From Massalongia carnosa (taxonomy: Eukaryota), in assembly GCA_965645245.1 (NCBI GenBank), contig OZ287074.1, positions 248,001 to 312,000 of the forward strand: 64,000 nucleotides of DNA. The letters run 5' to 3'. Made by a program: the position numbers and the translations under genes. The notes under the pieces are model-generated. The model made no database searches, had not been told where the DNA came from, and saw nothing but the letters and a program-made list of their open reading frames with translations. This document shows positions 1-15,409 of this stretch, one piece after another (within the stretch, counting starts at the first letter, position 1; the number at the start of each line of letters is the position of its first letter).

Positions 1-1200
1 GCCGCTTAATAAGCATCCTAACCCTACCTACCCCTCCCTACCTACATCTCCCTACATACCAACTCACCCTGCTGTCGCCAAGTTTCGAAGTTATTCAACT
101 CGCCGACATAGAACCCTCCCCCGGCGCCCCCCCGGCGCCCACATAAAAATTCCCGCCGCTGCCCACATGAAAAAATTTCCCCGCGGCCCCTAATAAAATC
201 CCCCCTATTTCCCTCTTTATTCGTCATCATCCCGCCGACGATTCCTACTCTCCTCCGCCGCCATCGTCATCGCCAGCGTCGTCGTCTCCTCATCTTCCAA
301 CTCCTGCAAGGCCTCCTCCACCCCCCGTCTTCTGATTGGTTCAGTCAACTTCTCAAACCAGTCTAGCCATCGCTTTATTTGTGGATTTCTTTCCTCGGCA
401 GTCCATTCGGCGGTGTACTCGGCTATTTCGTAGTATTTGTCTTTAATTGCGTCCAAAACCTCTCTCATCTGTAGCATATGTCGATCCGATCTTTCTACCT
501 CCTCGTGATGATCAAAATCCAGCCTAGTCGACGTTTCATACACCTCGAAGCCGCTATCCTCAAACATCTCCGCCCAGACTGTCCAATTGACTTCCTGAAA
601 CGCGTCGAAAACGATGTTATAGTGCCACAAGTGTCTGCATGGGAGTTGATACTGACGCCAAAATAGACAGTCTACAGGACAGATTAGCTCATCAGGCAGC
701 TCACCTGCCGGCTCATCACCGTCTGCTAAACTTCTAGCGGCTAGCTTCCATTGATCAACTATGAGCATTTGCACGGGATAGGGAAATTTTCGAAGATATG
801 GGCATTCCTGACATTCGGGAGTCATAGTAGTACGAAAATTAGCCTCTTCGCTGCGGGCTCGATTTTCCCATTGATCCCCGATTCGAATCACATGGCTTGC
901 AGCCCCGATCAGAGAAAAAGTCATGAAATGCGCTTTACCTACAGTACTAATTAGTATGACGAATGAAGCTCAAGAAATAGTCTCACCGTCAGCATGCTTT
1001 TTAATAGATGCGTGCCAGGATTCTACCGCATTAGTCGTCATACACTGCAGTAAAATGCATGAATGCTGACGTGCGTAATTAGCTCATTTGGATTTAGTCT
1101 GCACCCATTCTCGATCTATATATTGACGTTTTTCTTCAGGGGCAGCTGCCAATGCCTTTTTGAGACTATCATCGCATCCGAGCTCCGTTTTTCTGAAATA

Positions 1201-3508
1201 CAGTGAACCCTGGCTATAACGAATCGATGATTCCATGAAAAAAATTCGTTATAACCAGTTTTCGTTATAACCTTAATTTCTACGAAAACATCTCATTTTC
1301 TACCTAAAATAGCTGGTAATGGTCATCTGCTTTCTAGTATTGATTTCCCCATTTAGCATAACCTGCTCCGAAGCATTCAAACGTTGAATCAGATCGATGT
1401 CGCCATCTTCCTGTTGCTCATGAAATGTACGTAGTATTCTCAAAGCTTGAATAGCTTCAGAGTATTTCACTGTAGGTTTGACGATCTCATCTTCATCCGA
1501 TTCTTCAATTTGACCCTCGGCGTATGCATCCACAATAGTATCAAGAATGTCATCATCATCCTCAATGATTTCTTCCGCGGGATTGAGACATCGTTCAATA
1601 CTTATGACGTCTTGAATGCGATCATTCTTCTTCAACTGCTGCAATGTAGTGTTCATCTCTTTTACTAGTTGATTGTAGTCTTCCGTCTCTTGATCAACTG
1701 CCTTCGACCAACCCTTTTCTTTCGTCCAGCCCATTTTCTTCGCTTGCAATTGCGTAGTAGGTCCGAAATTTGCTGAGAATACCAAAGACTTAATCCAGCA
1801 GTTGACGATAGTAGCGGGTTTGACGTCATACTCCCAAGCAGTCATTGACTAACGAATAGCTTGCAAATATGCATGTTCTTAAAAGGATCTTTGTCCGCAT
1901 CATACTGATCACATAAAAAGGCTAGCTATTTTCGCTTGTAGTGAGCCTTAAACGTCTTGATGATGCCTTGATCCAATGGTTGACAGATGCTTGTAGCATT
2001 GGCAGGAAGAAATATCACTTTAACGTTTGATTCAGGATTTGATTCTGAATACTGACGATAGCCAGCAACATGAGCTGAAAATCCATCGACTAGCAAGACT
2101 ACTTTGCGATTTGTTTGACGACTAAACCATTGCAAATACTCTTGAAATAATACTCCCGTCATCCATGCCTTTCTATTGCTTCGCCATAGCATATTCAGGT
2201 TGCTAACGTTGATCCCCTCACGCGTAAAACAGCGAGGTGTTTTTGCCGTACCAATGAACAAAAGTGGAAGTTTATGAGTGCCCGTTGCATTAACGCAAAA
2301 ATTAACGGTTATTCTAGCTTTCTCAAGCTTCAATCCAGCAGATGAAGCTGTAGCCAACGTTCCATTCGGATTCATCTTCCAATACAAGGCAGCCTCATCC
2401 ATGTTGTATACATCGTCTTGATCGTACGGAGCCAACTTAATTCTCAAGTCCCTCAATTCTTCTTCCACTGTCTCCTTGTCAACTGATGCCGCTTCTCCAT
2501 GTCGAATACGAAAGGAGATGGAATGACGAGCTTTAAAAGCATCTAGCCAACCGTTAGAAAACTTGGGCATTTCTTCATGAGAGTATTGGGGAAGTCTTAT
2601 CCAGATTTTCTTTGCCATCTCCTTCAATAACTCTCCCGTCACAGTCGCCTGCTTTGTCTGCATTCGTTGTTGCCATTCGAAAAGAGCCGCTTCAAGATCC
2701 GGCCAAAAAGAAGCTTTCAATCTTTTGATATCAGGTTGATTCCGAAGGTGTATGACCGAATTCAGCTTCAAACCAGACTTGAAGAGCTTTGCCGAAAGGT
2801 CTTTTAACGAAATTATTCTGAATATACTGACGAAGCGCGTGTTTTTCTGCATCTGTGATAGGTCGACGACGTTTTTTGGAGGAAGAATTCATGATGAGTT
2901 GTTGGTTATTAAAAGTGTTGTAATGTGCAAAGTCACCCGGCTGATGCCTAGTAAAGTGTTCAGAGTCACATAGTACCGCATTGGGATTAGTGCGTTGGTA
3001 AGAACATTAGGCAACACATAACGACCTCGAGAAGCACCGCAAAACTTCTATGAACATTCCCATCGAGTCATAAATTGGATATGAGTCAATCACCAATCTT
3101 AGATTTCTAGGAAGCAGGAAGGTGAGTCATAGGGAGAACGGTTTTAGGCATGTTTTTCTATCTATATAAACACGGTCCTTAGATAGGTAGATAGAAAGAT
3201 CAATCGTTTCAAAAGTGAGCTTTTTACTATGCCAGCAGAGCTTCAATTACAATAAAAAGGATATGTTATCTATCGATAAGATGCGCAGCATGTAGTACTA
3301 CGTATCAAGAATTTTTATCAGCTAATCCTAAAAGGGTAATTGCCGAGGTCTAGTTATAGCGAATCACTAAGAAACTTTCTAAAATTGCTTACGAATTCGC
3401 AATAGGCCGACATTCGTTATTTTACATACAAGAATCGCTCATCCATGAAAAAAATTCGTTTTAAGCCGAATTCGTTGGAAAAAGGTTCGTTTTAACCAGG
3501 GTTCACTG
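1201..3508 (-). mobile_element. pogo/Tigger-like (CENP-B HTH + DDE_1) DNA transposon, 2308 bp
   Basis: 23-bp TIRs (CAGTGAACCCTGGCTATAACGAA at 1201; inverted copy 3486..3508, 2 mismatches); TA duplication at 1199-1200 and 3509-3510. Confidence 0.93.
1300..2892 (-). pseudogene. Degenerate pogo-family transposase
   Basis: MNSSSKKRRRPITDAEK N-terminus from 2892, then PDLEAALFEW (CENP-B HTH), YNMDEAALYW, VLLVDGFSAH and QPLDQGII. Frameshifts and TAG stops near 1926 and 1850. Confidence 0.85.
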
Positions 3509-5628
3509 TATAGAGCATCATACAAATGCTTTTTTGCATTTTTGCAATTGGGACCGACCAATTTTCGATTCAGGGTACGCTCGGAGTGAGTCCGACAAAG
3601 TAGATGAGTAACCTCCATCTCCCCGTCGATCAACCCTCGAAATGCAAGACTGACCCCTCGCTGTTCAGCTGCAGAATCGTCGGTGATAATGTATCGAAGT
3701 CTCCAAGCTCTAGGCCATCGCTTAATCTGACGAAGAAACTCTCCTATAATGTCACCGTCCTCGTTACTACTCAGCATGTGGGCTCCGGGAATCCAGCTTC
3801 CACATTCGTCACGAATCATCAATGTAAATAACTTCCATTTTAGCTGATTGGTGTTATGAGTACTGTCCATCAATGTCAGATGTCCACGTTTCATCAATAC
3901 TGATAACCGAGATCTTTTTGCAAATGCTATTGCATGTGATCTTTCTCTATCAATGAGACGAGTTATTTCAAGCTTTGCAGCTAGAACATCTTCACCCAAT
4001 GCCTGCAATGCATCAAAACAGCTATTCAATTGATTAATCCATGACTCCCTAGCTCCCTGAATTCGTGCATCAGGATTCTGCTTTTTAAAGCTTCTTCCAG
4101 CATTGTATACGGTTTGAAAGTTGAAATTCGACCCCCCGGCCTGGTTCAAAGCTTCAAGATTCCCTTCCCATCTAACGCCCTGCATGTTTCGATTGACGTC
4201 TCCCGGGGTATATCCTTTTGCCACCTCTTTACCAGCCGTCAGTCTGATGGCGGAGTTGATTTTGATATTGTCCACAACCTCCAAAATGTGATTATGTTGC
4301 AGCTGATTAACTGAGTCGTCAAGCTTCTTGTTGACGTGACGACTCAAAGTCACCGTCAACAATTCATTGATCTCATCAAATTGTTTGATCATAGCCAGCT
4401 TTATAGAGCAAGCATCAGTTAACCGCATTCGTTTAGCACGTCGTCCTGAACCTTGACTTTTAATGTCAGCATCTTGCTTCCAAAGTCTGCAAAACCAATA
4501 TGATTTTTGAGTTCTCTTCTTGGTAATAGGCTCCGTGTGATTATGCACCCAGATGTTGTCCATAAACGGCCAGTATGAAGCATAATTATCCGCAGTCCAA
4601 GTTATTGGTGCATCTAATGCAAAGACAAGCTGACGCATCGAGACCAGATGAGAAGGTAGAGCCAAGACAGTGGAAATAGGGGTCGAAGCGGAGCGAGAAG
4701 ATCCTCTGGCGACGGTGAGCTGACTATCCAGCTGACTATCTAGCTGACTGTCGACGTCGCTTTCGGGCTTGGTGGTATCTAAGTACGAAGACATCTTGAA
4801 TAGCCTCAATAAATGAGAGCAGCGAGGTATGAGAAAAGTGATAATAAGGGGTAACCAGGGGATGAGAATTACGGTTGGAAGACGCGACATTAATATTTAC
4901 GAGATTTGGTCATGTGCCAGCTTACTAATTGCTGCGGCAGCTAAATGGTATGGAAAATAGAAAACCTCTGAGTTTTACAGCCTCCCCCAGGGCTAAGCGA
5001 GTATGTATTCCAACAGCATCCTCGACAACCATCACTGCAACCATGATCCTTCGCTGCCAGATCAGGTACAAATCATCCTCAGCCCCCTCCTTCCTACGAC
5101 CTCCTACGCCTTCCTGTATAAATCGGACTTCTTGAGTTTGAATAGATCTTCTCGTCACACTCTCCAAAGATTTGATGCTACTCTATCAATACGCATACAA
5201 TAGACGCGACCTTGATGCGAGAAGATGGCGAACACGAAAATCTCTCTGTAGTTGGTTTGCTGCGTTGTCGAACTTAATCTTAGTAAGCTGACAAGGTGAA
5301 TGTAAGTCCTGAAGACTGAGAGAAGAGAAAAGGAGGGGGGGACAAAAAGATAACAACCAAAAAGGGTTGCAGGTCCTCGCCGTGCCGCACATATGTAAAT
5401 GAAATGATGACAGCATTTGCCACACAACAACACAATGAAGTTTGACGATTCTCCGCCCAAGTTTTGCAGCAGGTGGACGGTATTCTACAGGCGCCTGAAA
5501 GGCATTCAAAACCAACACTCCCTTTCTCTAGATCCAATGGAATGAACACAGCTCTTGATGATTAGAATCTTTATTACCTCCATCAAGCTACATTGACGCT
5601 GTTGTGACGAATCCTGTCGTTGATTCAA

Positions 5629-7086: not shown

Positions 7087-8009
7087 CATCAAGGTTACCT
7101 TACATCAGACATTGTATTGCTACAATGAAAGAAAGGATAAAATTTCTAACGTGTCAAGGGAAGGTTATTCCTTTCATTACAATTCCATCGAGTACAGGAG
7201 TGAAGAAGGGGAGCTTTGATGGCCGGGAATCCTGCTTCCCTGAGAATAAATTGAATAATGTACACAAAGTTCGTGTAAAAAGTGTCACAATTGCTTTGAT
7301 GTCTGAACCTCAATAAACTCCTTGCATTGCTATATATTCTCAGGCGATGGTCACAACACATCGCGTAAAGCAACAACGGAATGAAAGATTAAATCGACAT
7401 GAATCAGTTCGGTTTCCGTATCAAGCGACAGAATATCAGTTGACATCAAATTTTATCCAATACCTTGCAAGACTGTGTATCGGGCAGTCCTTGTCTATAC
7501 ATGCGGATACACATCTAGAATCTGAGCAGCAATTTTACATCAGTGCTAAACGCGGCTGCTAAATTACAGTGATGATGATAACGAAAGAAAATTTCCATTC
7601 CCAGGAAGTTATGTGATTGAATCTATAATTGTATGACTTAATGATTAAAAAGTTTCAGACAATTACATAAAGATTCGATTTTGTTTTGATCTGTTCAGTT
7701 TTAGAGCTAGTGCAAAAGAGAATAAACACGAGTCTTTTAACGATCGCGTTTGACGCTGATAAACGTTTCCGTTATTATGATAATGATAATGTATTCATAC
7801 TCCGATATGTCACCGGCAGGCCGGCCCATGCGGGCAAAGCTGTCTAAGTTATGTTACATGGAAAACCTTTTTCAGGTGTAAAAATCATATCCCTTGATAC
7901 CTGTCCGATGTGACAACGGATCGACGTCGGACAGGAGACGCAGAGCGAAAATATTGTGAGAACTGTGACGCCTTGTGAAATGGGAAGAAAAAGAAAAGTG
8001 AAACTACTG

Positions 8010-11000
8010 TTGATTATACAATAGTGTAGATGCCATTGAGAATTGGGCCAGTAGACCTGTTTTCATTAGTCAAGCAGTTAATATCTTTAGCATTTTTGAT
8101 GTTTCGGTTAGCTGTTGATAGTTGTTCGTGCCAGCGGCGCGAAACATCTGTTCTCTATTGTCAATAAGTCTACAGAACATGATTACGTGTTCTGGAGTTT
8201 GTCTGTGCCAGCCTCATGAGCAGGCCGGTGAGGTGACGGCGGGACCCGTCGCTGGTAGAGGAAGTCAGCTAGACCGATCTTACCGGTGCAGATCTGTGTT
8301 GTCAGGGCGCTTTCTGCCTTTTTTAGCAGCGTGTGTATTTTGAGTCGTTTTTTGCTCAGTGAGACTGATTGCGGTATGGAGGGTGGGTTCGGTGACACGA
8401 TTTTGATATGCGCTCCACGAGTCGTTCCAGACTTTCAGCTGTCGTGCTTTAATTGTCTGCATTTGTTTTTAACGAGCCAACGCTGCTACGGAGACTTCGC
8501 GGAGATGCGCTGGGGAGGGGTCGGGCCATGGTGGGTGTGCTTTGGGTGGTTGAACGATTTTTGCGTCGATCAGTAGGTTTTTGGCCCAGGTGTTCTTCAG
8601 CTCTCCCGGAGTGGATTTTTGAAGGCGTTTACCCTTCGATTGACCTCCGGCTCGGAGTCGATGTCTGGCCTGCGCCTGTAACGTGTCGAGGTGTACATCT
8701 ATGGGTGCTATGTATGTCTCTGCTTCAAGAACTGGAATGGGAGTGGCTTTAAAGGCACCGGTTATGATGCGAAGGCAGTTGTTCTGCATAACGGAGAGCT
8801 TACTCGTTGACGTTTTTGACTTTTTGACTTCTTTGGGCATGTGCCATACGGTTGACCCGTATGTCATGACCGGACGCACTACGGCGCTGTAAACTTGCCT
8901 TGCTTTGGTGAAGGTGGCACCCCAGGTCGATGTGGAGATTTTTGTCAATGCCATGGATTGTTCGACCATTTTCTTTTGAGTTTTGCGAACGTGCGGCCCC
9001 CATTTCAATTTGGTGTCAATTTGTAAGCCTAAGACTCTAATGTCCGTTTTAGGTTCAATTTCGGTGCTTTTGCAATGTTGATGAATGCAGCCATATTGAA
9101 TCTTTTGGGATTTCTGGACAAGTGAATGAGTTCGTACTTCGTCGGGGCGAATAGGGATCCGTGTCGAGAAGCCCACTTTTCGCATTGTCTGTGTGTTGAC
9201 TCCAGAGACTTGCAATTCTCTTCGGTGCTTTTTCCGTATGCCAAAATGTTGGCATCTTCTACAAATCCTATGACACTTGTGTTTGTGCCTGATCGCTCGC
9301 ATATTCCAATAGGTCTGCATTATAGAATAGATAAAGAATGAATGAGAAAGGGGAGCCCTGTGGTATGCCAGTTCTCACCGCGAATCGTCCGATCGCTTTT
9401 CGATTTATAGCTAGAGTTGTGCTACGATCATTTAAAAAGCTGTTTAATCAATCAGTAATTCATTTCGGGATTTTTCTTTTACGTAGATTGTGCGTTAGTC
9501 TTTGATGTGAAACTGTATCAAACGCGCCGGCGACGTCCATGCTTAAAAGTGTGGCTACTTTATCTTTTCCTTGTCCTCAAATCGTGTGAACCTGTTCGGT
9601 TAGTAACTTCAGAGCTGATTCTGTAGATCTGTCCTTTCTCGCTCCCATGTGTGTCGGGTAGGAGCCGATGTTTTTCCGCTAAATAAGTTATTTTTGATCC
9701 TATGATAGATTCCATTGCTTTGCTGAGCGTGTTGAGTAATGCAATTGATCGGTAAGCCTTCGGCGTGGTGTACTTTGCTTTTTCTATTTTTCTTAATATT
9801 ATCATGTTTGCCATTTTGAAGGCTCGGGGATGGTACGAAAGTGTAACGCACGCCTGAAACAGAGGTGTTAATAATTCAACAAGTTTTTCCGCGCATGTCT
9901 TGAGTACTCTATTAGATATGCCGTCAGGACCCGGTGCTTTATCGGGCTTGAGCCGATGCAGGGCCTTGGACACTTCTGACCTGGTGATAATCATTGGACA
10001 GTGCGGCGATGCTAGATAGAAGGATCCTTCTATATCGCTTAAGTCGGCCGGTGGTGGTGCGGGAAAGAAAATGCTTTTCAGCATTTCGGCTTTCTCATCG
10101 AACGTGTCTGCTGTTTGATTATTGAACTTCAAAGTCGGCATTTTGGGTACTGTGTGACTTTTGTCTTTGGCCCATTTCGCTAGCCGCCACAGAACCCTGA
10201 GGCGTTTCGGTAGCCTTACTGATCTCTTGACGAAAATTTGTCCTCTTTGCTTTTTGGATAATTTTCTGTTTCTTGTTATTAGATTGACCAGTCCGCTAGA
10301 TCTCGTGTGTCAGACCATATACGGCGTAATTTTCGTGTGGCTTTGGTGGCAATATTGCATTCTTCTGTCCAGAAAGGCTTAGCATATTCGCTAGGTTTCG
10401 CCCATGGGACGGCTGCATTGATGACATTTTATAGGAAGTTTTGAATCGATTCTGTGTATGTATCGATCTCGACAGGTGTGCGGGGAGACGCCGGTGAAGG
10501 TGTGTGGCGCTCGGCTTCCCTTAATTTTTCCAAATTCAGAAGTTTCCATGCCCTGCGTTTACTTTTTGGTTGCGACTCGCTACCGAGTAGGATGCGGGTT
10601 GATATCGGTACGTGATCGGACGATTGATTTAATTCTGGTCTGGTCATGCAGTGTTCAAGTCTTTCAACTAGATGTTCTGACATGAAAACTAGATCGATCG
10701 TGCTAAACGTGTTTCTTGCTTCCCATGTTACGGTGCCTTTCGGCAATGTTAGCGAGAGATTGAATTCATCGATGATTTCTAACAATTGATCAGCTGCAGC
10801 ATGTTGTGTAGGTCTTGAAGGACCGTTCCAAAATGGATGATGCAGATTGAAATCACCAAGCAGGATATGATGCACGCCTTCGGTTAGCATGCTCCGAGCG
10901 GTCGATAAAGTAGAAGGGCTATCAGTGGACGAATAGGAGGCAGGAGAGGGATTGTATACGTTGTGTATATGGATCACCTCCACTACGCCTTCGGTGCATG

Positions 11001-11298
11001 TTTCTATTTTTAGCGTGCACATGTCGGCCGAGGGAAATTCTACTTCCCAGCTGTCAGTGCCTATTGAATCGTTGATGTAGAAGCACACTCTGGTGTCGCC
11101 TCCTGGGCGGTATAGAAGGTGAAAGCCACTTTGATGTGAACTGAGCGATGTGGGGGCGGATGGGTTGCACCACGGTTCCTGTATTGCAATGATATCATAG
11201 TCCTGGGTGTTTGTGTCTGCTAAGAGGGGTATCATAGTACTCACTCTATCATTTCTGACATTATACTGCAATATCGAGAGGGATTTTGTGTCTCTCAT
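8010..11298 (-). pseudogene. LINE ORF2 (APE endonuclease + reverse transcriptase), fragmented
   Basis: ILQYNV, IIAIQEPW, LLGDFNLHH, STIDL and SDH (APE); KAPGPDGI, YRSIALLNTL and IRVLGLQID (RT); C-terminal RQTPEHVIMFC knuckle. Many stops and frameshifts; the lower bound is approximate. Confidence 0.88.
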
Positions 11299-11543
11299 AG
11301 GATTTCCATGGTTTCGACCACTGTGACTGGGGTGGCCTGGGTGCCTGTCGTTACTACGGATTCTGCGCGGGGTCTACCTAGCGCTGGTTTTGCTAAGGCT
11401 TTGATCATGTTTTCAGGATTCATAATGCCTATATTAGCCCAGGTTGATACTTGCTCTCCTCGGGGAGAGCCCGGTGATGAGTCGGCTGAGAGCCCCGCGT
11501 TGTGCATTTTTCTTTTCTTGCCGTTCACAATCTTCCACGTTGA

Positions 11544-12865
11544 AGACTTCGATAAGAGTCCTGGGAGTATACATTGACACTAGACTCGATTGGGCAGCGC
11601 ATTACAAGGAAATTCAGAAGAAAATGACGAGACAAACAATGGCACTGACCAAAATCGCAGCCTCAACCTGGGGGGCGACCCTCCTACGAGCCCGCCACGT
11701 GTACACAGCAGTGATACGCCCCGCCATGTCGCACGGCTCGATAGCATGGCACATGCCAGCCGAAGCAAGAAAGAAAGCCAAAGTCGAATCAAGAAGCAAA
11801 CTCGAAGTCATACAAAACAAGTGTTTACGAGTCATAGCCGGAGCGTACAAGGCTACCCCAATTGAAGTATTACAGGCAGAAACCCACATCCCTCCCTTAA
11901 CGCAACATCTAGACCGCTTACAAGCAAAAACGAGATCCAGAATCTCGAACAGCGAACAGGAAAAAATTATAAAGCAGGCGTGCAATAGAATTCAAGTGAA
12001 ACTCAGAGGTAAAAGAGGTCAATCGCGAGTCGCAGAGAAAACACCGGGAACTCGTAAACGAGAATGGGTAACAAAGATGACGAAAGACGCACCGAAAACA
12101 GTTAAACTGGATCAACCCTCTCCCCCTCCCTGGACAACGATCGACGAGGCACAGAAGAGACAACGCACAGCGCAAGTAACGACGCAGAACCAACGAGACG
12201 GGATAATAAAGAAGCACTTTGAGAATCAGTGGATCAACAAGTGGAAAGCATATCAAGCAAAACACACGTTATATCCCACGATCGCACAACAGGCGCCTAT
12301 ACACAGGAAAAGGCTTAACGCACACAAGTTACTAGACAAAGCGCAAAGTTCACTAGCAACACAGATAAGAACGGAAAAAATCGGACTGGCCAACTTTCTA
12401 TATCGGCGCAAGGTCCCAGGTGTGAACTCGGCGGCATGTCCCTGCGGAAGCCTCTTACAAACAGCCAAACATGTAATCATGTTCTGCAGACTGCACGAAC
12501 ACAGAACGCACATGCTACGAACGGCAGGCTCGTCAGACTACCGCAAGCTAATCACCGAACCCAAAGCTCTCAAAGTAGTAACCGCGTGGCTCATGCGCAC
12601 AGGTATTTTAACACAGTATTCCATTGCCACGCAACTGCTTGAACAGCAGCCGGGCAGTCTCTCTTCAGTTTGAAAAACAGGTATCGCAGATTTTCGAGAT
12701 ACAGGAATCAATCCGCGGGAGCGGCGAACCCCCGATGAAGCGGATACGCAGGAGTAGTTTTTCACCTTTGGGTTTTCTACTTATTACATAGCTTATATAG
12801 CATCTCCCGCATGGGCCGGCCTTCGGCCGGTGACACAACGGCGTAAGAATAATCAAATCAAATCA
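11544..12865 (+). mobile_element. 5'-truncated LINE of a second family (B), nested antisense in the host LINE ORF1
   Basis: 15-bp TSD AATCTTCCACGTTGA at 11529..11543 and 12866..12880; (AAATC)n tail. Uninterrupted RT-thumb/C-terminal frame to the stop at 12673 (IRVLGVYIDTRLDW...CPCGSLLQTAKHVIMFC). Confidence 0.93.
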
Positions 12866-13357
12866 AATCTTCCACGTTGACGAAATTTCGTTCGTTTGTG
12901 TAGCTGCGAGTGTCTGCGCTCCTTGAAACTGGGATAAGGGCGATTGTGACTCGATTGTGTATAGTGGAGCGCGATTTTGCATAGCAATTTCAGTTTTTCG
13001 GTTTTCAGTCTTTCTGATTTTGCATGTTGTAGATCACGCCTCGTGTCCCTTCTCTCCGCATATGGCACATCGACGGTATTGCCCCGTTGCCTTCAAGTTG
13101 CATTCTTTACTTTGATGTCCACCGGCACAGTGATCATAAGCGGCGGGATTGCGACATGATTTATCTATGTGACCATATTTCTGACAATTGAAGCATTAGG
13201 TCATGGTGCAACCACGTGTAAAACGCTCACAGTCTTTTATTTCGTAGTCCTTCATCAGGCCCTCGGTAATGAGCCGGTTGGCCATCTCGGCAGTAGCGAC
13301 CTCCATGTGTAGAGTGGAGTATGCTTTTTTCTCCCTGATGGTCTTGACTGACCCAAG

Positions 13358-14685
13358 CACGCGGGGGACAAAAAAAAAACTACACCAAAATTTAACCGGG
13401 TTCAACCCCCCACCAAAACACAAGCAATTTCCATACAATTTTGATGGGATAATCACCATTTCAACAACCAGTCATCCAATTCATTCAATCTATTCAATAA
13501 CCAGTCATTTTACCCTCACCATCCAAAACAGCTCTCAATCTATCTGGCATAGTAGACACCCGTTCATTGATAAATGCCTGGGAAACGTTCGCCCACCCCT
13601 CATAAATTAGCCCCTTGGTCGTATCATCATCCCAATGAGGATATTTTTTTAAATATTGCTTCGGGGCCTGCCAGCAATTTTCTATGGGGGCCAAATCAGG
13701 TGAACATGGACAGTTGAAATAGTGCTTCAGATCGTTGTTCTGCTTCCAAGTGCGTACAATGTTTGATTTGCCTGGTCCATGTCCAGAATCACCGTCTTCT
13801 TCTAAGACGAAATCGTGTTTTGCTTCAATCCAGGGCTTCACAATAGGCTCCAATATAGAGTCGATATAGACTCGTTGACTCATCTTTCCATTGGAGTTTC
13901 CAGGAACTCTGTAAAAGTAGATATCTGACTTGAAGTCATGACCTGCAGCAGCCCAACAGTGATGTCTCTTCTTGGCGGCCTCGTCTGGTTCATCTGCTTC
14001 TTGAATACAATCATGACAATAACGTTCACCTAATCTTCGTATGATGCGTAATTTGCCCTGAGGTCCCCATCCAAAGTGCACTTCGTCACTAAATCGAACT
14101 TGTTTCCAGTCTTCTGCATTTGGATATCTAGAAAGCATAGCATCTGACCACTTCATACGAAGCTTTCTTGTCTTCTCGTTCACCCATCCCTTTCTGCACG
14201 CAATGCATTTGTGATAATCCATGGTGCCCATGATTCGTTGAATGGTTTTGCCACTGCAGTCTAGGCCTACTTCGAAGCCCAATTGCTCCCATGTAAGAGC
14301 GCGCGCCTCCATACCTTCTTCTTCCAATAGCCGTTCCATTTCTCTAATCAATTTAGGCGTAACAATTTTGTGACGCGCACGAGCTTCAGAAACATCGGAA
14401 TTATTATGATGACGGCGTGATGAGGCTCCTTCACGCAGGTATGCATAGCCCCTCGTACGTTCCACATCAAATGTGCGAAAAACATCCTCTTTGTGATAAG
14501 AAATGCCTTGCTTTTCGCAAAATTCAACGGCTCCCTGAATTTTAGCTTTGGTAGGAGTCTCGATATGTTTAGAATTCATAATAATGATAATTATCCCATC
14601 AAAATCGTATGTAAATTGCTTGTGTTTTGGTGGGGAGTTGAGCCCGGTTAAATTTTGGTGTAGTTTTTTTTTTGTCCCCCGCGTG
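13358..14685 (-). mobile_element. Tc1/IS630-like DNA transposon, 1328 bp, ~100-bp TIRs
   Basis: TIRs 13358..13460 and 14583..14685 begin CACGCGGGGGACAAAA; flanked by the direct repeat CCAAG (13353..13357, 14686..14690). Confidence 0.93.
13494..14579 (-). CDS. Intact Tc1-like transposase (DD37E), 361 aa
   Basis: WKQVRFSDEVHF, LEEDGDSGHG and SPDLAPIENCW; 37 residues between the second D and the E; no stops. Confidence 0.92.
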   Translation of the reverse strand: MNSKHIETPTKAKIQGAVEFCEKQGISYHKEDVFRTFDVERTRGYAYLREGASSRRHHNNSDVSEARARHKIVTPKLIREMERLLEEEGMEARALTWEQLGFEVGLDCSGKTIQRIMGTMDYHKCIACRKGWVNEKTRKLRMKWSDAMLSRYPNAEDWKQVRFSDEVHFGWGPQGKLRIIRRLGERYCHDCIQEADEPDEAAKKRHHCWAAAGHDFKSDIYFYRVPGNSNGKMSQRVYIDSILEPIVKPWIEAKHDFVLEEDGDSGHGPGKSNIVRTWKQNNDLKHYFNCPCSPDLAPIENCWQAPKQYLKKYPHWDDDTTKGLIYEGWANVSQAFINERVSTMPDRLRAVLDGEGKMTGY

Positions 14686-15409
14686 CCAAGCTACTTTGAT
14701 GATCTTGAGGTCAGGATGCAGGCGTGCGTTGGCGGCCTGCAGGTACGCGATAGCAGTTGATTGATTGGCCACTTTGATGTTTTCCACCTTGATTCCATTT
14801 GCCCTTACGGTGAAGGTACGAGTATGCACCGCTGCGGAGGCGGCCATCATGCAAGTTCAGTCGGTCTTTTCCTGCAGGGTTTTCTTTGCCTTCAATGACT
14901 TCGTGTGAATCCTTATGTCGTCATTTAACAAGCGCGACACTCGTATTCCTTTCGCTTCATTTTGCAACGTTTCTACCAGCTCTTTGGTTGGCATCAGCTT
15001 TACTTTTTCTTTATCTGCATTCTTCGTTATGTGAACAGTGATTTCTCGCGCTTCCTTCGGTGTAGGTATTTTGTCCTTTGAAGTCGGTTGAGACTTGACA
15101 TTTTTGTTCATCACGACCTCGCCCCGTGGCGGCAGCGGCGTAGCTTTGAGAAGTTGTATCCTTCCGTTATATGCGTGTCAGTGTTTGTTGAATAGATTGT
15201 AGAGTGTCATTGAGGATGTTGGGCGCCTTTGCAACTTCGTCGTCGATCCACTCCTCGAATATTCAATGTTTCCGTTATTATATTATTATATTTAATTCTT
15301 TTTTCAATAATCTCGTTTCGTACAATATAAGTTTTTGATACTACGTCTCTAGTCATTAGTATGTAGTCACTGAGTATGACTGAAAAACAAGGTACCGCCA
15401 ATGAGGTTC

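Follow-up and report, generated by a model that had tools for sequence, protein, structure and literature searches.

Duplication of a TA dinucleotide at the insertion site is a defining mark of Tc1/mariner transposons, and it is explained structurally by the base flipping of Mos1. How, then, does a transposon with a Tc1-like transposase come to lie between two copies of CCAAG? The question is raised by an element in a 64,000-nucleotide stretch of Massalongia carnosa DNA (GenBank assembly GCA_965645245.1, contig OZ287074.1, positions 248,001 to 312,000 of the forward strand), here called the window. A preliminary description, made from these letters, had proposed a lineage of the superfamily IS630-Tc1-mariner (ITm) with altered target choice and stagger. 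Comparison with other copies, with empty sites and with related families upholds that proposal: the five duplicated bases vary from site to site and the duplication is shared across a clade. The element is very probably an autonomous, recently amplified cut-and-paste Tc1-like transposon in a filamentous ascomycete, whose ends are joined to target strands 5 bp apart without a requirement for TA.

The features that first drew attention can all be read in the window. CCAAG stands on both sides of the element, as a left (13353-13357) and a right (14686-14690) target site duplication (TSD), TA adjoins neither flank, and the termini, which begin with CAC, read CACGCGGGGGAC...GTCCCCCGCGTG. The span initially assigned, 13353 to 14690, holds a real element together with both of its TSDs; the element proper is 13358-14685 (minus strand, 1,328 bp). 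Its inverted arms extend over 104 nt and are 94% complementary, but one of these bases is the G/C of the flanks, which gives terminal inverted repeats (TIRs) of 103 bp. The TIR downstream of the transposase (13358-13460, plus strand) begins CACGCGGGGGACAAAA, and its partner lies upstream of the transposase (14583-14685, minus strand). The terminal bases are CACGCGG, with a run of A starting at base 13. A 20-nt end motif occurs twice in the window, both times at an element end (chance expectation 0.02). The architecture is TIR-ORF-TIR with one open reading frame (ORF), and both size and layout fall within the ITm range of about 1.3-2.4 kb.

The element interrupts the gag-like ORF1 of a long interspersed nuclear element (LINE) on the minus strand. 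The 3' part of the host ORF lies at 12863-13352 (94-96% identical to the uninterrupted copies L072-L077) and the 5' part at 14691-15248 (88-91%, with several private gaps). The empty-site comparison for which the preliminary description had called gave a clear outcome: the target is present once in 24 of 24 uninterrupted ORF1 copies, as CCAAG in 17 and as a one-base variant in seven. The extra base that had been noticed on rejoining the host ORF is also real. It is a C at 13352 (plus strand), beside the left TSD, which turns CC into CCC and is missing from all 24 empty copies. Since the host copy carries further private gaps, this C is a local event that lies outside the duplication rule, be it a private indel, a slip during repair or a mistake of the assembly.

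Other genomic copies, to which the preliminary description had also looked, behave in the same way. The genome as searched comprised 52 Mb in 25 contigs and holds at least 30 full-length copies, 98-100% identical and with the same ends as the window element; this is a lower bound, as 40 of 279 candidates were scored. Anchored on the end pattern, all 30 copies have an exact 5-bp TSD and none is flanked by TA. A first pass had given 29, and anchoring recovered the thirtieth, which has a mutated end; in one copy, the TSD sits in a run of C that extends the match to six bases. The duplicated bases vary over the 28 distinct target sites of the family, and exact 21-nt empty-site matches were found for eight other insertions among the fetched loci and the window. 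CCAAG is one of many targets, and nothing about it is special.

Over 50 distinct sites, the target takes the form of an 11-bp palindrome, TA-N-[S-C-W-G-S]-N-TA, with T at 64% at position -5 and A at 63% at position -4. The TSD itself has the consensus S-C-W-G-S and a GC content of 66%. TA fills positions -5 and -4 in 40 of 100 half-sites (background 5.7%, p ~1e-23), but on both sides in only four of the 50 sites; the preference for the palindrome is soft. Different 5-bp families have independently hit the same or adjacent targets within other repeats (L021 and L038; L026/L027 and L039; L008/L010 and L017). These cases may point to shared hotspots, and some of the pairs may be duplicated segments.

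Where the preliminary description had considered the element possibly still active, the copies speak for recent activity. A full stop-free ORF with an intact catalytic triad is present in 21 of the 30, and copies differ from the majority sequence by a median of two substitutions per 1.3 kb, so that the family appears to have undergone a very recent burst of amplification. Among the 95 substitutions in L001-L030, 41 are C-to-T or G-to-A, 21 of them at CpA, a weak bias resembling repeat-induced point mutation that leaves most copies almost unaffected. Sequencing runs X1-X6, from four studies with four organism labels, contain 66-94% of the element's words, and no RNA run was among those listed with them. 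X3 and X4 hold the element at depth 2 and none of the flanks of insertion L014. A shared host, contamination or horizontal transfer may account for the element's words in these runs.

The transposase ORF, P0001, runs without interruption over 13494-14579 (minus strand) and encodes 361 amino acids, with a predicted helical N-terminal DNA-binding part and an RNase H-like DDE_3 domain. The FSDE, D and SPDLxPIENxW motifs and the DD37E spacing were already recognised in the preliminary description. Alignment with the Sleeping Beauty (SB) transposase SB100X (profile E 2e-17) places the triad at D165 (FSDE; 14085-14087), where conservation agrees, at D262 (EEDGD) and at E300 (SPDLAPIENCW; 13680-13682). 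D262 opens a lineage-specific loop, D-G-D-S-G-H-G-P-G (13770-13796), which exceeds its SB and fungal TA-type counterparts by three residues. Two CxxC motifs provide putative zinc ligands, C125 and C128 in the inter-domain linker (14196-14207) and C188 and C191 in the loop that follows D165 (14007-14018); all of these lie on the minus strand. The Pfam domain DDE_3 scores 33.7 bits, above its cut-off of 28.6, and HTH_Tnp_Tc3_2 scores 26.1 bits (E 1e-5), below its cut-off of 31.5. The predicted model (mean predicted local distance difference test, pLDDT, 86) has two three-helix groups in its N-terminal part. Its best structural matches are SB (5cr4; Z 20.8, root-mean-square deviation 3.9, 205 residues aligned) and Metnase/Mos1 (Z ~18.5), and Mos1 (PDB 5hoo, 4u7b) matches over the full length (Foldseek E 1.6e-11). 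Retroviral integrases score below Z 10, and no RAG1/Transib chain is among the structural matches listed, with Tc1/mariner chains ahead by about 9 Z. The element had been called intact, and the open ORF and complete triad agree with that. In the window copy, however, and in no other of the 29 aligned at this position, Gly68 is replaced by Ala. The residue belongs to an R-G-R motif of the linker, which relatives conserve at 90% or more, and the enzyme of this copy may be impaired.

P0001 is far from alone. A search returned 422 matches at E<=0.001 and a profile search 488 clusters at E<=1e-30, with no match in plasmids and no relatives in viral contigs. Named homologues belong to Pyrenophora, Bimuria, Clathrospora, Ophiobolus, Macroventuria, Botrytis, Rutstroemia, Colletotrichum and Xylaria, all of which we take to be filamentous ascomycetes. 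Database names for members of the clade are 'hypothetical', 'HMG box protein' and 'Tc1-like transposase DDE domain'; the second, used at NCBI for P0043 and P0060 (Rutstroemia and Pyrenophora tritici-repentis), is an apparent misannotation.

Further P0001-related families occur in the same genome at 51-80% identity, and the sister families that duplicate 5 bp range from 53 to 72%. Among 40 of their loci, 33 were anchored (one anchor, at L034, is internal), and these comprise 20 with an exact 5-bp TSD, three with one mismatch, ten without a match and none with TA; stricter anchoring retained 16, of which 13 were exact. Of 80 metagenome loci at 35-70% identity, 46 have a TIR, and by our own count 22 of the 46 carry a repeat of 5 bp next to an end of the CAC, CAA or CTC type. 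Under the strict rule, 21 metagenome loci were anchored, 13 of them with an exact 5-bp TSD (10 distinct), and TA at the terminal register was found in none. The 5-bp duplication is a clade-wide trait.

Several rearranged relatives were also observed. Five metagenome elements (L156, L164, L170, L171 and L172) have internal deletions that reduce them to about 575 bp with both TIRs kept, and four of the five have a 5-bp TSD. At G000:C12:909084-921219 (L032, L033, L320, L321), two inverted sister copies lie 10.8 kb apart with their TSDs exchanged (GCTAT...CCTGT and ATAGC...ACAGG), which reads as the signature of an inversion through recombination between the copies. At L048 (G000:C9:1002600-1005800), a sister transposase lies within a 213-bp, 99% inverted repeat that starts AACGCG and has unmatched flanks; this locus is possibly nested or rearranged.

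The most basal homologue, P0262, has Zymoseptoria tritici proteins among its relatives; used as a query against the genome, it revealed another family (L260-L280, L290-L316). Its members are about 1,410 bp long (for example, G000:C10:555024-556435), with ends CACAG[CT]GGGTGTCAAAA and CACGTGGGTGTCAAAA and a DD38E transposase without CxxC. They are flanked by a variable 3-bp TSD at 12 of 14 anchored loci and, after a DNA search, at 14 of 16 distinct sites, with the target preference R-W-Y; both ends were missing from 11 of 30 loci. Canonical DD34E Tc1 families were read from this genome as controls, and 10 of 10 ends have TA followed by CAGT, CAG(T) termini being a Tc1 feature; more cases of TA were seen at other control loci. 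The control end pattern matched five of 14 loci, which gives these 10 ends. Short imperfect TIRs were missed by the search for self-inverted repeats in 39 of 50 control loci, and ends were taken from multi-copy boundaries. The TA-type Tc1 ends and those of the window element have the same register, CA-N7-G-N-CAAAA, in which CACG aligns with the CAGT of L206-L210. From this common register it follows that the element ends have stayed put and that the target cut has moved.

The nearest TA-type relative found is L211 (L211, L230-L259; 29% identity, E 2e-29). It resembles P0001 in having both CxxC motifs, but it is DD34E, reads Q-D-N-A-S-I-H after the second catalytic D and duplicates TA within a near-strict G-TA-C target. 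At GTAC sites a 4-bp GTAC duplication looks identical to TA, and one end outside GTAC favours TA. Four of the listed L211 ends border directly on an end of an element from the 5-bp clade that has landed at the L211 terminus.

A careful tree (34 rows, LG+G4; 12 of 46 rows were left out as long branches or near-duplicates) unites the 3-bp family with the Zymoseptoria group and the 5-bp families in a single clade (100/99), within which the 5-bp families are a subclade (100/98). The TA families lie outside, and quick trees concur; in the first tree, 14 of 80 rows were dropped for want of the motif used in cutting. L211 as sister is weakly supported (Shimodaira-Hasegawa-like approximate likelihood ratio test 80-89; 90/69 in the careful tree). 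The P0001 lineage falls among fungal Tc1-like proteins and away from IS630, and its placement within the superfamily is rough, the trees having been built without animal Tc1, mariner, impala, TRT, pogo and Zator references. Larger DDE_3 elements of at least 2.5 kb (L176-L205) encode proteins that group with bacterial IS630, and one of their families has TA followed by CAGTCGACTGCAAAA at its ends.

The window element shares much with Tc1 and SB, namely a length near 1.3 kb, a single ORF for some 360 amino acids, TIRs and their register, DDE_3, the FSDE / D / SPDLxPIE motifs and the fold. Fungal DD34E Tc1 elements (L206/L214) and SB, however, use TA and have CAG ends, whereas the P0001 clade has GC-rich 5-bp TSDs, CAC, CAA or CTC ends, DD37-38E spacing and a D-x-D-S-G-H-G loop; P0001 is about 25% identical to the fungal Tc1 protein P0288. 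Of 157 relatives, 96 have a D-E spacing of 37 or 38 (26 were unscored); in 91 of 105 TA-type homologues the spacing is 34, and across P0001's clade it ranges from 34 to 51. Judged from these sequences, the elements would form a separate Tc1-like lineage, Tc1/mariner by mode and descent but, as both TA and DD34E are lacking, outside Tc1 in the strict sense.

Nor do other described groups seem to accommodate them. The ITm-related Zator/TP36, Tc4 and ciliate TBE1 have 3-bp TSDs, and to our knowledge no ITm-related non-TA element has a TSD of 5 bp. By their descriptions, these three differ from the 3-bp fungal family in hosts and ends. The impala group, ITmD37E, L18 and L31 duplicate TA. The DD37E spacing of P0001 is common to TRT, impala group 9 (Dupeyron 2020), mosquito ITmD37E, L18 and L31 (PMC5630946, PMC7325037), and descriptions would set these groups apart; for TRT, TA duplication is stated, and it was not found in Dikarya (PMC5630946). 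Mos1 resembles P0001 in its full-length architecture but is DD34D and strictly TA-specific, with the target bent by 147 degrees at TA and the adenines flipped and trapped (PMC5481204). TSD length has also changed within another superfamily, among hAT5, hAT6 and hAT7 (PMC12730594), but there no set dinucleotide in the target was available to be lost.

What, then, might have changed the target rule? In ITm transposition, a dimer binds the TIRs and excises the element, and both 3'-OH ends attack the target. Host repair of the gaps makes the duplication, the length of which therefore equals the stagger. The most suggestive difference lies in the loop after the second catalytic D. Fungal TA-type proteins read Q-D-N-A-P-I-H (about 97% of 105), whereas the non-TA clade reads E-D-x-D-S-G-H-G with three to four additional residues; the 3-bp family has E-D-N-D-P-S-H-G and SB has D-N-D-P-K-H. 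The loop maps onto P247/K248 of SB, and the hairpin before W209, at the site of SB H187, is also longer in the 5-bp subclade. In SB, target DNA is contacted by H187 and by P247 and K248, which lie three and four residues past the second D, and these residues influence the choice of site (PMC8934666). The loop may thus be what determines target choice. In the ancestor shared by the 3-bp and 5-bp families, a change from D-N-[AD]-P-[IK]-H to D-x-D-x-x-H-G with three to four more residues would have done away with the 'bend, flip and trap' by which a Mos1-type enzyme reads TA, and a less sharply bent target would have allowed a wider stagger, first of 3 bp and then, or separately, of 5 bp. That the loop change led in this way from lost trapping through a relaxed bend to a wider stagger, a correlation on a long branch, has a little under an even chance of being right. 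The broader proposal, an unrecognised and widespread Tc1-derived ascomycete lineage that left the TA rule and varied its stagger (3, 5 and perhaps 4 and 7 bp) with this loop as the switch, is put forward more tentatively still.

A number of observations pull against these readings. The loop change coincides with many others on a long stem (0.68 substitutions per site), and engineered SB mutants at the loop positions shifted their preference yet stayed on TA (PMC8934666). An exact 5-bp match is missing in eight of the 21 anchored metagenome loci and 13 of the 33 anchored sister copies; these are likely old copies, rearrangements or collapsed contigs, an attribution that is mostly unproven. The strict rule left 58 of 80 metagenome and 24 of 40 sister loci unanchored, and the clade-wide TSDs were read in the own genome and in metagenome loci, a sample outside which the Zymoseptoria group and all NCBI-named members fall. 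Among the 16 sites of the 3-bp family, one has a 4-bp match and one has none. L132, on a metagenome contig of 2,203 bp, has CAAGGCCTGGCC ends and a 7-bp flank match, CCCAGGT; its close relatives L133 and L135 have no flank match, and L132 may reflect an assembly effect or another stagger. Finally, an empty orthologous allele at L014 was not found in four sequencing runs: X6 has the filled site, X2 the flanks in pieces, and X3 and X4 the element only, with no joint across the element.

Of the competing explanations, the one that fares best concerns novelty rather than mechanism: there is a substantial chance, if short of even, that the family has already been catalogued with its 5-bp TSD in Repbase, Dfam, TREP or a subscription paper, which would make this a rediscovery. 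The clade is common and has members in the well-studied genomes of Pyrenophora, Colletotrichum and Botrytis, and curators have named TSD-length variants elsewhere (hAT5/6/7; PMC12730594). On the other side stand the uninformative database names given above and the open-access full texts, in the available portions of which the lineage is undescribed; Repbase, Dfam, TREP and subscription journals fall outside that scope. Fungal Tc1/mariner papers give TA only, or undefined TSDs for pogo-type elements, and no description of the lineage appears in the accessible text of PMC10085805, PMC3441728, PMC4188875, PMC2836289, bioRxiv 2025.12.02.690432, PMC13469147, PMC11544213 or PMC13004909. Candidate precedents were rejected in turn: DAHLIAE is pogo-type with TA, Dici is DD34E with TA, the 5-bp TSDs of S. 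osmophilus belong to long terminal repeat elements, and the Sclerotinia and Paracoccidioides elements and the discoglosse, Starship and Tn630 papers also failed, no TSD being stated for discoglosse or Starship in the text available. In the tree file of PMC7325037, eight Pyrenophora entries lie far down among fungal pogo-type names, which suggests that the P0001 clade is unsampled there.

A different cause of the wider stagger is conceivable but unlikely: the two CxxC motifs, in the linker and in the loop after the first D, would together make a zinc clasp that re-spaces the active sites. The linker motif occurs in 121 of 157 relatives and the second motif in 117, about three-quarters in each case, as against none of 105 impala-type Tc1 proteins, and both presumably lie in regions that form a dimer contact in Mos1. 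However, TA-duplicating L211 has both motifs, so that their presence is not enough to give a wide stagger, and both are missing from the 3-bp family, so that TA can be abandoned without them. They may still play a role in the difference between 3 and 5 bp.

Far less credible is mobilisation in trans by an unrelated transposase that has a 5-bp stagger and acts on CAC ends (one of the Transib, hAT5 or CMC type), with the Tc1-like ORF as a passenger. Transib offers a superficial match in its GC-rich 5-bp TSDs, its CCWG-like preference and its CAC first bases (PMC1131882), and the link between ORF and insertion rests on sequence in a genome that has had no search aimed at Transib or hAT5 transposases. 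Yet TSD length tracks the encoded transposase clade across genomes and across families with CAC, CAA and CTC starts, the TIRs keep the Tc1 register, and 21 of 30 copies retain a full ORF with an intact triad. One survey, in its available text, reported no Transib in fungi (PMC5751038), though soybean rust has it according to PMC1131882. Transib also has a CACAATG heptamer, a 23-bp spacer, a AAAAAAATC nonamer and 206-214 residues separating its second D from the E (PMC1131882), whereas the window element has CAC alone and 37 residues. Membership of Transib was rejected on the D-E spacing and the missing heptamer, and the likeness is probably convergence. Weakest of all is the suggestion that a 2-bp stagger was kept and that mis-set boundaries or repair-added bases produced the 5-bp repeat: it can draw on the one unexplained extra C at the window site, but five bases that change across 28 distinct sites cannot be part of the element, 5-bp identity is exact in 30 of 30 copies, the 5-mer occurs once at empty sites, by which the suggestion is already refuted, and the same procedure yields TA for canonical Tc1 elements.

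The window contains other repeats as well. Nested LINE pieces occupy 7818-12870, where a plus-strand 3' fragment (ORF 11438-12673) with an (AAATC)n tail lies within the transposon-hosting LINE; a 17-bp inverted match between 7818 and 12822 resembles two LINE 3' ends. At 1200-3509 lies a TA-flanked element of 2.3 kb with CAGTGAACCCTGG ends and a broken ORF that is pogo/Fot1-like, a family assignment made from motifs only; the end of this element is the empty site of insertion L020.

For annotation, classifiers that depend on TA flanks would overlook or misname these elements, which are common in fungi, along with the non-autonomous elements derived from them. Nor can a fungal CAC end be read as a safe sign of Transib when a 5-bp TSD accompanies it. 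For the Tc1/mariner family, the consequences are broader. The authors of the Mos1 structure offer base flipping as a template for the redesign of target specificity (PMC5481204). Here, evolution has changed the target rule, with two new lengths as the outcome, in enzymes that are small and intact and whose near relatives use TA, so that determinants of target and stagger are directly testable. If the loop is the switch, loop swaps could show how a DDE transposase sets both target sequence and stagger, and a vector of Sleeping Beauty size that prefers GC-rich targets would be possible. Young TA, 3-bp and 5-bp families within one genome are a natural system for the study of target choice in enzymes related to Sleeping Beauty.

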